Of a stretch of 64,000 nucleotides of DNA, positions 3,212 to 26,898 are shown in pieces. Position 1 is the stretch's first letter. The number at the start of each line of letters is the position of its first letter. A program made the position numbers and the translations under genes. A model generated the notes under the pieces. It did no database searches. It worked only from the letters and a program-made list of their open reading frames with translations, and was not told the DNA's origin. The DNA comes from an uncultured virus (IMG/VR IMGVR_UViG_3300029787_000004) (lineage: Duplodnaviria > Heunggongvirae > Uroviricota > Caudoviricetes): IMG/VR virus record IMGVR_UViG_3300029787_000004; one strand, 5' to 3'.

Positions 3212-3489
3212 ATGATGAGGAACTAAGAGCACAGATTGAAGTGCTAATTCGTGACGAAATTCAAGAGGTCATCAACTCTTATGTCGAAGAACAAAATAAA
3301 AGTTCTGGCGACAGTGGGATTGGTTTTATCACTCCTGAGGAGCAGAAGGAGATGACAGTGAAGATTAAGAATGCAGAGATTGATAAACTCATGAAAGAGT
3401 ATAAACAGATTAAGAAGGAAGAGAAATCAAATATCTCTGAGATCAAGAAACTGGGTCTTGTAGACAAATTTGGCAATCCACTTGACTAA
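3208..3489 (+). CDS. Hypothetical protein
   Basis: 93 aa, in operon context. Confidence 0.75.
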   Translation: MNDEELRAQIEVLIRDEIQEVINSYVEEQNKSSGDSGIGFITPEEQKEMTVKIKNAEIDKLMKEYKQIKKEEKSNISEIKKLGLVDKFGNPLD

Positions 3490-3510
3490 ATAAGAAATGA
3501 GGTCTATAAT
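3482..3510 (+). promoter_or_regulatory. Sigma70-type promoter overlapping a late-promoter-like CTAAATA
   Basis: TTGACT(3482)-N17-TATAAT(3505); predicted TSS ~3517 coincides with the riboswitch 5' end. Confidence 0.85.
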
Positions 3511-3516
3511 AGACCT

Positions 3517-3750
3517 GTCGTTCATCCCGCTACGGGCGGGACGCAAGTAAGTCGCGGAACGGAGTCGTTCATCCCATGATTGAATTTCTTTTATATTCAC
3601 AGCTCAGTTGTTCTGATGCCGATGCAATTATGTTTCGGATGAAGAATAAGAAAAATCTTAACGATCAAGTTAAGATTGAACTAATAGAAGCCGTAAAGGA
3701 ATCTACACCTGAGTGCTATCCATGGGACGCACACGATTGAAGGAACGGGA
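3517..3750 (+). ncRNA. Glutamine riboswitch-like RNA (glnA/Downstream-peptide family), double aptamer
   Basis: Two copies of CGTTCATCCC...GGGACGCA...GGAACGG; AGTA/GAA E-loop halves; lies upstream of a YRG-motif peptide gene. Confidence 0.8.
3576..3740 (+). CDS. 54-aa ORF inside the riboswitch P2 stem (MIEFLLYSQLSCSDADAIMFRMKNKKNLNDQVKIELIEAVKESTPECYPWDAHD)
   Basis: Manually translated open frame; start and end lie in conserved aptamer segments. Confidence 0.6.
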   Translation: MIEFLLYSQLSCSDADAIMFRMKNKKNLNDQVKIELIEAVKESTPECYPWDAHD

Positions 3751-3809
3751 AAACGGATCCATCGAAAGATGAGAAGGTTCAATTTCACCCAACTTTCAGG
3801 AGTAAACTC

Positions 3810-3956
3810 ATGACTACAACAATCACTTATAGAGGGCAGAAGTACGACAAAGATGCGTACAAAGCCAGTGTGTTGGCACAAGCAACACAACAACGCAACC
3901 ACAATCTAATGTATCGTGGTATTAAGGTCGAACGTAAGTTCGCATCGAAGAGCTGA
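3810..3956 (+). CDS. DUF4278-like peptide (48 aa)
   Basis: ITYRGQKY...LMYRGIKV double YRG motif; CAGGAG SD. Confidence 0.8.
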   Translation: MTTTITYRGQKYDKDAYKASVLAQATQQRNHNLMYRGIKVERKFASKS

Positions 3957-3961
3957 TTGTT

Positions 3962-3990
3962 AAGGGAGGTTTCATAACCTCCCTTTTTTT
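3962..3990 (+). terminator. Rho-independent terminator
   Basis: AAGGGAGGTT-TCAT-AACCTCCCTT plus T run. Confidence 0.9.
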
Positions 3991-4101
3991 GTAAATTATT
4001 TCGAGAACTTCATTAAGTTAGCATACGCTGACTAAATACTGATAGAATTGGAGAGCGAATGAACTAAAAGTCTTCGTAATCGTTCTATCAGGAGAATTAT
4101 T

Positions 4102-26596: not shown

Positions 26597-26814
26597 TTAC
26601 GCCTCAGACATACATCGATATGAATAAAGAGTTTGAAGAGGATAATATTCCTTTTCGAATCACTATTCCTACACAGGAAGCAATTGATGAGTGGCAGTCA
26701 AAACCACCAGCACATTATCAAACACCACCAGCAGTGGATATGGTTGCTGAGATGTGGGCAGAGCATAATAGAATAGAAGAAGAACGCAAACTACAACTCG
26801 AACTTGATTTATAG
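26593..26814 (+). CDS. Hypothetical protein
   Basis: GTGA overlap. Confidence 0.65.
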   Translation: MITPQTYIDMNKEFEEDNIPFRITIPTQEAIDEWQSKPPAHYQTPPAVDMVAEMWAEHNRIEEERKLQLELDL

Positions 26815-26898
26815 GGAGTGTGGCGGAATCGGTAGACGCACCAGACTTAAAATCTGTTGAGAATTAATCTCGTGGGGGTTCAAGTCCCCCTACTCCCA
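26814..26898 (+). tRNA. tRNA-Leu(TAA)
   Basis: Acceptor GGGAGTG/TACTCCC, D-loop GG, anticodon loop CTTAAAA, long variable arm, GGTTCAAGTCC T-arm; no encoded CCA. Confidence 0.95.

Follow-up and report, generated by a model that had tools for sequence, protein, structure and literature searches.

Both types of glutamine riboswitch are described as switches that turn on the translation of IF17 or IF17-like genes, in the portions of the two published accounts used here (PMC6212724, PMC6698751). As far as the first of these portions goes, genes for DUF4278 proteins are the usual cargo of glutamine riboswitches, and Klahn et al. propose that a 3' segment of the aptamer can pair with the ribosome-binding site (PMC6212724). 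The features of the glnA RNA that serve for comparison in this work come from parts of PMC2864571 and PMC6212724. A survey, in the part considered, lists two glutamine aptamers only, in two cyanophage genomes, and concludes that phages rarely use riboswitches (PMC5473149), while the excerpts of cyanophage genome papers used here mention glutamine riboswitches in passing (PMC9964418, PMC9602691). An open reading frame (ORF) inside an aptamer has been described for another sensor. The B12 aptamer of Mycobacterium tuberculosis metE holds a short translated upstream ORF (uORF) of about 16 codons, and mutation of its start codon alters downstream expression more than 10-fold, according to the compared portion of the report (Kipkorir et al. 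2024, PMC11260477). Here we describe a locus in a 64,000-nucleotide (nt) stretch of DNA from an uncultured virus (IMG/VR record IMGVR_UViG_3300029787_000004), a T4-like cyanomyovirus; this whole stretch is called the window below. On balance, we lean towards reading the locus as a nested small-protein gene that sits in the P2 loop of the second of two tandem type I (glnA-like) glutamine aptamers, ahead of an IF17-like gene.

The locus is one small promoter-to-terminator unit at 3482-3985. It holds aptamer 1, a split aptamer 2 and then a DUF4278 gene, all on the + strand. The 5' half of aptamer 2 (3566-3578) reads CGTTCATCCC-ATG and adjoins aptamer 1 directly. It is comprised of the P1 strand CGUUC (3566-3570) and the P2 strand UCCCAUG (3572-3578), and the latter includes the ATG at 3576-3578. 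This is the start codon of the nested gene (3576-3740), which was identified by its ORF, a profile match to phrog_504 ('T4-like GC 430') and its substitution pattern. The product has 54 amino acids (aa), reads MIEF...PWDAHD and ends at the TGA at 3738-3740. The 3' half of aptamer 2 (3721-3748) carries the P2 strand CAUGGGA (3721-3727), the core CGCACACGAUUGAAGG and the P1 strand GAACG (3743-3747), and it encodes W-D-A-H-D-stop. The 3' end of the ORF, CCA TGG GAC GCA CAC GAT TGA, is written in the 3' strand of the helix and the aptamer core, ACGCACACGATTGAAGGAACGG (3727-3748). The final codons and the stop lie within TGGGACGCACACGATTGAAGGAACGG, which is followed by a 60-nt linker and then AGGAG. 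The two halves of aptamer 2 sit 143 nt apart and the ORF fills the P2 loop, which has about 143 nt against the usual 4-20 or so. An earlier note on this DNA had placed a 54-codon ORF ending in TGA at 3576-3740 and a GGAG at 3561-3564, with the ATG inside the 5' strand of P2 and the last codons forming its 3' strand and the core; direct reading of the window bears out every one of these positions. The pattern of the 3' half, ACGCA-N10-GGAACGG, matches twice in the 64 kb, at 3541 and 3727, both on the + strand, where 0.03 matches are expected, and two matches occur in none of 100 shuffles. CGTTCAYC occurs in the window only at 3519 and 3566, which is not significant alone since 2.32 are expected.

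This arrangement recurs widely among phages. A query of 801 nt from around the locus found matches in 422 phage records, and the first word of their names is Synechococcus (351), Cyanophage (63), Prochlorococcus (6) or Marine (2). Base-by-base reading shows the identical layout in 80 IMG/VR loci and in four named phages. The four phages, ACG-2014b, S-SKS1, S-SSM5 and S-SM1, belong to four genera, and in the annotations of three the ORF is a hypothetical protein ('T4-like GC 430'). For a count of geometry, 206 loci were parsed into 271 distinct aptamers. Among the 159 second-position aptamers, an ORF of 49-66 aa (median 54) is found in 143, the loop is short in 15, and one has a long loop with an ORF that ends early. 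Frameshifts or stops in homologous loops would have told against the earlier note, and the opposite is seen: in 143 of the 144 distinct long loops an intact ORF begins in the 5' strand of P2 and reaches the 3' half, and the single exception carries an intact ORF that ends about 30 nt early. The ATG stands 4 nt after CGTTCA in 132 of the 143 ORF-bearing second aptamers. The stop codon starts 10 nt into the core in 124 of them, 13 nt into the core in 15, which form a clade with a 3-nt longer core and end in DAKAD, and just before the 3' strand in the remaining 4.

The same geometry is found in first-position aptamers, 23 of 112 of which hold an ORF of 59-75 aa (L022:253-487; also L096, L101, L106, L116, L118, L139, L146, L148, L153, L161 and others). 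Twenty of these 23 cluster with phrog_6471. Their stop codon, TAG or TAA, usually lies directly 5' of GACGCAAG, and their start codons lie roughly 18 nt downstream of where the transcript is predicted to begin, without a Shine-Dalgarno (SD) sequence. The distinct nested proteins number 160, and BLAST groups them into four clusters with 138, 20, 1 and 1 members. The two large families are distantly related according to hhalign (79% probability, E 1.6e-5), with both cysteines matched, and these sequences suggest that the aptamer-plus-gene unit was duplicated in tandem. As a separate observation, in one cluster (protein P0018) the stop of the first nested gene reads Q, and the frame stays open across the 3' half of aptamer 1 (DASKSRNGVVHP) and continues into the second nested gene, so that both are fused. 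A 1-nt spacer variant, GGAG-N-CGTTC, puts both nested genes in one frame.

The small gene could also be a passenger. Aptamer 2 would then serve the IF17-like gene only, the small gene would sit in a loop that tolerates insertions, as genes for homing endonucleases do in introns, its translation would be set by aptamer 1 or by the GGAG, and the overlap would have no regulatory meaning. We regard this as rather unlikely. The length of the P2 loop does vary in ORF-free relatives, up to 47 nt, and second aptamers without an ORF exist; the protein family is also found outside riboswitches, and either aptamer can house different ORF subfamilies. However, a passenger is expected to bring its own ribosome-binding site and to take an arbitrary position in the loop. 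Instead, the ATG abuts P2, at 3-5 nt after CGTTCA, in 142 of 143 cases, the ORF passes through the 3' strand and has its stop inside the core in 139 of 143, and the geometry repeats in aptamer 1, where the ATG stands 4-5 nt after CGTTCA in 23 of 23.

The nested gene can be followed in its own right. An IMG/VR scan found 155 stretches that encode a relative of the nested protein, and the best 80 of the 155 were read. The alignment set contains 84 loci and the window (85 sequences, 58 of them distinct at the nucleotide level). An open frame of 53-56 codons is kept in all 84 loci and the window, and length differences are whole codons without exception. Among the 58 distinct sequences, entropy by codon position is 0.56/0.24/0.75, and third positions vary at invariant residues such as Y7, C12, E36, L37, E39, E43, P46 and C48 (alignment columns). 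The comparison of nonsynonymous with synonymous substitution rates (dN/dS) across homologous loops, which the earlier note had proposed as a check, gives a median of 0.24 (Nei-Gojobori; 1464 of 1653 pairs with usable dS), and both alternative frames are closed by stops in 58 of 58 sequences. The match to phrog_504 is full-length (E 3.1e-26; residues 1-54 against positions 1-53 of a 53-position profile). When 1.84 billion representatives were searched with a profile, 127 protein clusters were found, nearly all of 50-60 aa. The AlphaFold model is a two-helix hairpin with a predicted local distance difference test score (pLDDT) of 84.5, helices at residues 12-23 and 30-43, and conserved cysteines at 12 and 47. 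Foldseek returned no match in the PDB at E <= 0.001 (best E 4.3), and a search of the ESM Atlas returned unnamed viral clusters only. Comparison of the sequences indicates that the 54-codon ORF is a real, conserved protein gene under purifying selection.

Paralogues that end in ...PECFNEGS occur in 15 loci (L206-L220) in an ordinary operon, where they overlap the end of the upstream gene. Because these loci lack the aptamer halves, the protein family exists independently of the riboswitch. It is hardly credible that the ORF is untranslated and conserved through RNA structure alone. In favour of this, the nested protein matches no Pfam family above cut-off. Against this stand the low dN/dS and the variation that tracks codon position, the paralogues in ordinary operons and the confident predicted fold; moreover, RNAalifold on 31 sequences places P1 and P2 around the ORF and finds almost no conserved structure inside it. 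A genome_contigs scan for the nested protein found 2 loci only (L085, L086) and no cyanobacterial copy. Both are 25-kb contigs of metagenome-assembled genomes, labelled Verrucomicrobiales and Euryarchaeota, and are probably mis-binned phage DNA. Relatives of one further protein, P0091, were sought among viral contigs and none was found.

The helix that would close over this gene is P2, formed by 3572-3578 with 3721-3727. Among the 85 sequences, both sides change at 5 of the 7 pairs: C-G becomes U-A and A-U at pairs 3 and 4, and U-A becomes C-G at pair 1. There are 35 compensatory cells against 10.2 +/- 2.7 in shuffled alignments (0 of 500 reach the observed value) and no more than 10 with the partner strand slid by 1-3 columns. 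The observed mean contiguous P2 stack of 5.61 exceeds the 4.25 +/- 0.10 obtained by random re-pairing of the strands (0 of 2000; 88 distinct strand combinations). The enclosing helix that the earlier note had drawn around the start codon thus shows compensatory changes across about 150 nt. In three distinct sequences (L122 and L147 among them) the U-A to C-G change at pair 1 comes with the loss of a conserved Asp (WGAND). The codons TGG GAC GCA have zero third-position variation among the 58 distinct sequences, unlike the rest of the gene, and the non-coding GAAGGAACGG 3' of the stop is invariant. Within the protein, it is the WDA(N/H)D tail that the aptamer dictates. The conserved core of the family, GACG(C/G)AA ... 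GAAGGAACG, is present in the window as GGGACGCACACGATTGAAGGAACGG, which aligns to the consensus in ORF-free relatives.

Such ORF-free relatives also allow the halves to be judged by the standard model of the glnA RNA, RF01739, whose gathering threshold is 35 bits. A scan for the inter-aptamer junction found at least 119 stretches. Among the matches listed, ORF-free second aptamers have a short loop of 11-27 nt and halves identical to those that flank an ORF. These short-loop aptamers reach the threshold in 8 of the 11 loci scanned (35.0-39.4 bits), and the remaining three score 34.2, 31.2 and 30.1 bits. Taken together, the sequence comparisons give good but indirect grounds on which the split second aptamer looks real.

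The 3' half of aptamer 2 leads into the expression platform (3737-3799). In the unconstrained fold, UUGAAGG (3737-3743), which is the stop codon plus the first P1 base, pairs with CUUUCAG (3793-3799), and this second segment reaches into the SD sequence AGGAG (3798-3802) of the downstream gene, which was recognised from sequence and covariation. One short segment is thus stop codon, aptamer core and SD mask at once. The relatives supply 99 distinct combinations of core, pre-SD segment and linker, 73 with an AGGAG within 130 nt and 26 without, and the following counts use the 73. The core UAAAGG occurs 18 times with CUUUAGGAG, never with UUCAGGAG and once with another segment. The core UGAAGG occurs 34 times with UUCAGGAG and 20 times with UUUAGGAG, the latter as a G-U wobble, and with no other segment. 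The second base of the stop codon covaries with the base before AGGAG (Fisher p 9e-7, shared ancestry included). An SD mask formed by the 3' segment of the aptamer agrees with the idea of masking until glutamine arrives, as set out in the portions of the published work compared (PMC6212724, PMC6698751).

The linker contains a hairpin (3755-3780) with a GAAA-capped stem CAUC/GAUG (3760-3771). This stem reads CAGC/GCUG, CUCG/CGAG or CUGC/GCAG in relatives and looks conserved by compensation; in other phages the linkers are shorter and quite different. The downstream gene (3810-3956) encodes a 48-aa protein of the IF17-like type with a YRG motif. It scores 26.2 bits on PF14105 (DUF4278) against a cut-off of 25.3 and matches phrog_5049, so the element sits in the 5' leader of a DUF4278/IF17-like gene.

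Aptamer 1 (3517-3565) is glnA-like, with P1 formed by 3519-3523 and 3557-3561 and a P2 hairpin formed by 3525-3531 and 3535-3541. P1 and GACGCAAGUA are present and P2 covaries, but CGCGG replaces GAAGG. Its P2 is compensated among relatives, the first pair being U-A in 87, A-U in 8 and C-G in 3. The minimum-free-energy fold contains a possible inter-aptamer hairpin, GAACG-GAGU-CGUUC (3557-3570, + strand), formed by the 3' P1 strand of aptamer 1 and the 5' P1 strand of aptamer 2. In one locus (L062, 440-500) GAACG has become CAACG in aptamer 1 and CGTTC has become CGTTG in aptamer 2, a double change that keeps this hairpin and breaks the innermost P1 pair of both aptamers. The double change was also noted at a second locus (L045:60-100). 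Going by these one or two sequences, it is possible that the hairpin links both aptamers and holds the GGAG in a small loop. The earlier note took GGAG at 3561-3564 for a possible SD sequence within the inner hairpin. The site stands, while its placement does not: it lies in the 3' tail of aptamer 1, in the stem end and loop of the possible inter-aptamer hairpin.

A mechanism can be proposed from these overlaps. A 30S subunit on the AUG at 3576 covers the GGAG, the P1 strand at 3566-3570 and the P2 strand, and a ribosome that terminates at 3738-3740 sits on the 3' strands of both P2 and P1, on the core and on the mask. Because a ribosome at either site holds the P1 and P2 strands or the core single-stranded, a molecule whose nested gene is being translated cannot have aptamer 2 folded at the same time. 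The claim of the earlier note that a translating ribosome unfolds the aptamer follows from this footprint geometry. With glutamine bound, aptamer 2 would close P1 and P2 over the start codon and so lower initiation on the nested gene. The UGAAGG segment would be taken up by the aptamer, the downstream SD would be freed and the IF17-like gene would be ON, in keeping with the published ON behaviour of glutamine riboswitches. Without glutamine, the 5' half of aptamer 2 would either be free or be sequestered by the 3' strand of aptamer 1; UGAAGG would mask the downstream SD and the nested gene would be readable. At each termination the ribosome would briefly reset both aptamer and mask. As for the nested-ORF interpretation, its structural half is supported and its regulatory half is plausible; the direction of regulation, reciprocal or coupled, is one that we infer.

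Several points weigh against a nested gene in a working second aptamer under purely reciprocal control. Shared ancestry remains in the controls for P2 covariation. P1 of aptamer 2, CGUUC/GAACG at 3566-3570 with 3743-3747, is paired in 99.8% of cells among the 85 sequences, and because it is invariant covariation gives it no support. About 40% of sequences fail to form pairs 6 and 7 of P2, those with the U and G of the AUG, and in many phages only the A of the AUG sits in P2. A cmscan with RF01739 reported nothing for the split aptamer at 3566-3748, even at E up to 10, a 143-nt loop being beyond what that model allows. Aptamer 1 scores 25.1 bits in a permissive scan, below the threshold, and first-position aptamers elsewhere, which cmscan reported in 6 of 11 loci, are all sub-threshold at 24.9-27.8 bits. 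The folds of aptamer 2 are thermodynamic only, computed without ligand or tertiary contacts. The GGAG site reads GGAG in 127 and GGAA in 15 of the 143 distinct ORF-bearing aptamers; because of these 15, and because the first-aptamer ORFs lack an SD sequence, the SD is not essential to the design. The location of the stop codon in the SD mask adds a further point, since translation of the nested gene could turn the downstream gene ON.

Transcript data bear on the unit as well. In four metatranscriptome runs a contig lies on 3674-3837 with 1 difference and spans the last part of the ORF, the 3' half of aptamer 2, the linker and the beginning of the following gene; contigs also lie on 3737-3900 and 3538-3578, each with 0 differences. 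Such contigs reveal no strand, expression level or translation, and libraries of this kind can contain DNA. The four runs have no contig on 3300-3515 and cover beyond 3974 comes from one run, a pattern that says nothing on transcript ends. The contigs from RNA libraries lend weak support to transcription, not translation, of the unit.

The absence of the second aptamer from the cmscan output and of covariation in P1 would both be expected if aptamer 2 were a relic that has lost glutamine binding. Its halves would then persist as the ends of a protein, as the P1 partner of aptamer 1 and as the SD mask, and a helix of 4-7 base pairs that closes about 143 nt is weak on its own. A relic, however, fits poorly with a P2 that compensates even by a U-A to C-G change at the cost of a conserved Asp, with the invariant non-coding GAAGGAACGG past the stop, and with halves identical to those of ORF-free aptamers that pass the threshold. 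We consider a relic very improbable.

Positive coupling between the two genes is a further alternative. Since the SD-masking helix includes the stop codon, a terminating ribosome could open the downstream gene. Ribosomes that end the nested gene would melt the UGAAGG/CUUUCA mask, the IF17-like gene would be read mainly then, and glutamine would act via aptamer 1 and the inter-aptamer hairpin, with both genes ON together. The stop codon is inside the mask helix and covaries with the mask. In addition, an unbound aptamer 1 would leave the inter-aptamer hairpin to keep the GGAG in a loop of 3-4 nt, and the compensatory double change in L062 preserves that hairpin. But the downstream AUG lies 70 nt past the stop, which is far for classical coupling. 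The placement of the start codon in P2 is left unexplained, and the strands of the hairpin are conserved anyway as P1 strands, so that one or two sequences only are informative. We judge coupling of this kind quite unlikely as the main mode.

A nested gene gated by its own split aptamer may belong to something broader, although here we are more tentative and could well be mistaken. The 'aptamer with gene inside' may be a modular cassette that was duplicated in tandem, in which each riboswitch gates its own loop gene and the gene behind it. If this is true, the proteins made from one short mRNA would differ between low, middle and high glutamine, with ribosomes resetting the sensor at the end of every pass. 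It would also follow that whole genes can split aptamers and that standard covariance-model scans systematically miss them, above all in phages.

The remaining features of the unit lie at its borders. A sigma-70-type promoter-like site (3482-3510, + strand; TTGACT, 17 nt, TATAAT; 11 of 12 matches) is expected to start the transcript at about 3516-3518, the first base of aptamer 1, and relatives show the same -10 box just 5' of CGTTCA. An intrinsic terminator-like hairpin with a T run (3962-3992, hairpin 3962-3985, + strand) was recognised from sequence behind the DUF4278 gene. An Rfam scan of the whole window at gathering threshold found nothing besides a transfer RNA (tRNA) at 26814-26898 (+ strand), which has 85 nt, a long variable arm and a score of 57.4 bits. 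In Synechococcus phage Sf-CH5 (hit H33) the match to the locus falls into two pieces about 1.1 kb apart, and a homing endonuclease gene is annotated under or beside it. In another locus (L135:586-739; also L176:1-35) a manA RNA motif, RF01745, scores 129 bits and is clipped by the end of the locus; in L135 it follows, at a distance of about 230 nt, a tandem pair of glutamine aptamers that hold no ORF.

Full-text literature searches returned no account of a gene inside a glutamine aptamer, and large insertions may be mentioned in Ames & Breaker 2011 (RNA Biol 8:82). Strings typical of the ORF-bearing form were not found in the supplementary alignments (file 5) of Weinberg et al. 2010; the generic GGGACGC occurs there 117 times, and the 12 places shown belong to alignments of other motifs. 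The glnA alignment in that work has very wide loop columns. Because the locus is present in 422 records and 143 of 159 second aptamers are split by a gene, the low count of phage riboswitches may be partly a search artefact. The split form and the sub-threshold first aptamer would explain the undercount in the survey.

The locus is of interest for a three-way overlap, with a start codon in a helix strand and a stop codon in both the aptamer core and the SD mask of the next gene. It is a clean natural system for the competition between ribosomes and riboswitch folding. It ties a widespread phage family of unassigned function, phrog_504, and the related phrog_6471, to host nitrogen status and IF17-like peptides, and it offers a testable entry to how cyanophages read or manipulate glutamine metabolism.

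How does this locus compare with known systems? It resembles the type I glutamine riboswitch (glnA RNA, RF01739) in its P1 CGUUC/GAACG, the adjacent P2 hairpin and the GACGCAA...GAAGGAACG core. As with the type I riboswitch of cyanobacteria, the aptamers are in tandem and a DUF4278 gene lies downstream (gifB/IF17 or DUF4278). It differs in that the element is phage-borne, a conserved protein is encoded in the P2 loop of about 143 nt, aptamer strands supply its start and stop codons, and aptamer 1 has CGCGG for GAAGG and stays below threshold. The closest precedent we found is the metE B12 uORF. There too an ORF lies within the aptamer domain, and its translation is argued, in the portion of the report compared, to affect switch folding and downstream expression; protein conservation and compensatory support for a helix are not in that portion (PMC11260477). 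In contrast to the metE uORF, the nested genes described here form a family of 49-66 aa under purifying selection that fills one hairpin loop in 143 of 159 second aptamers and occurs twice in tandem.

Two other classes of ORF in structured RNA invite comparison. Leader peptides, such as mgtL in the Mg2+ leader of Salmonella mgtA and those of classical attenuators, let the position of the ribosome select the RNA fold. They are sensors of translation speed rather than conserved folded proteins, and they lie outside the aptamer's own hairpin. The loops of group I and group II introns house homing endonuclease and maturase genes, and the long-range helices must still form around them. The likeness is a gene in a peripheral loop of a structured RNA. 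However, intron ORFs serve the mobility or splicing of the element, whereas the host RNA here is a putative metabolite sensor whose functional strands overlap the start and stop codons. None of the systems compared joins all four features of this locus, namely a folded protein that is conserved, a gene that fills the loop, an enclosing helix backed by compensatory changes, and tandem repetition of the arrangement.

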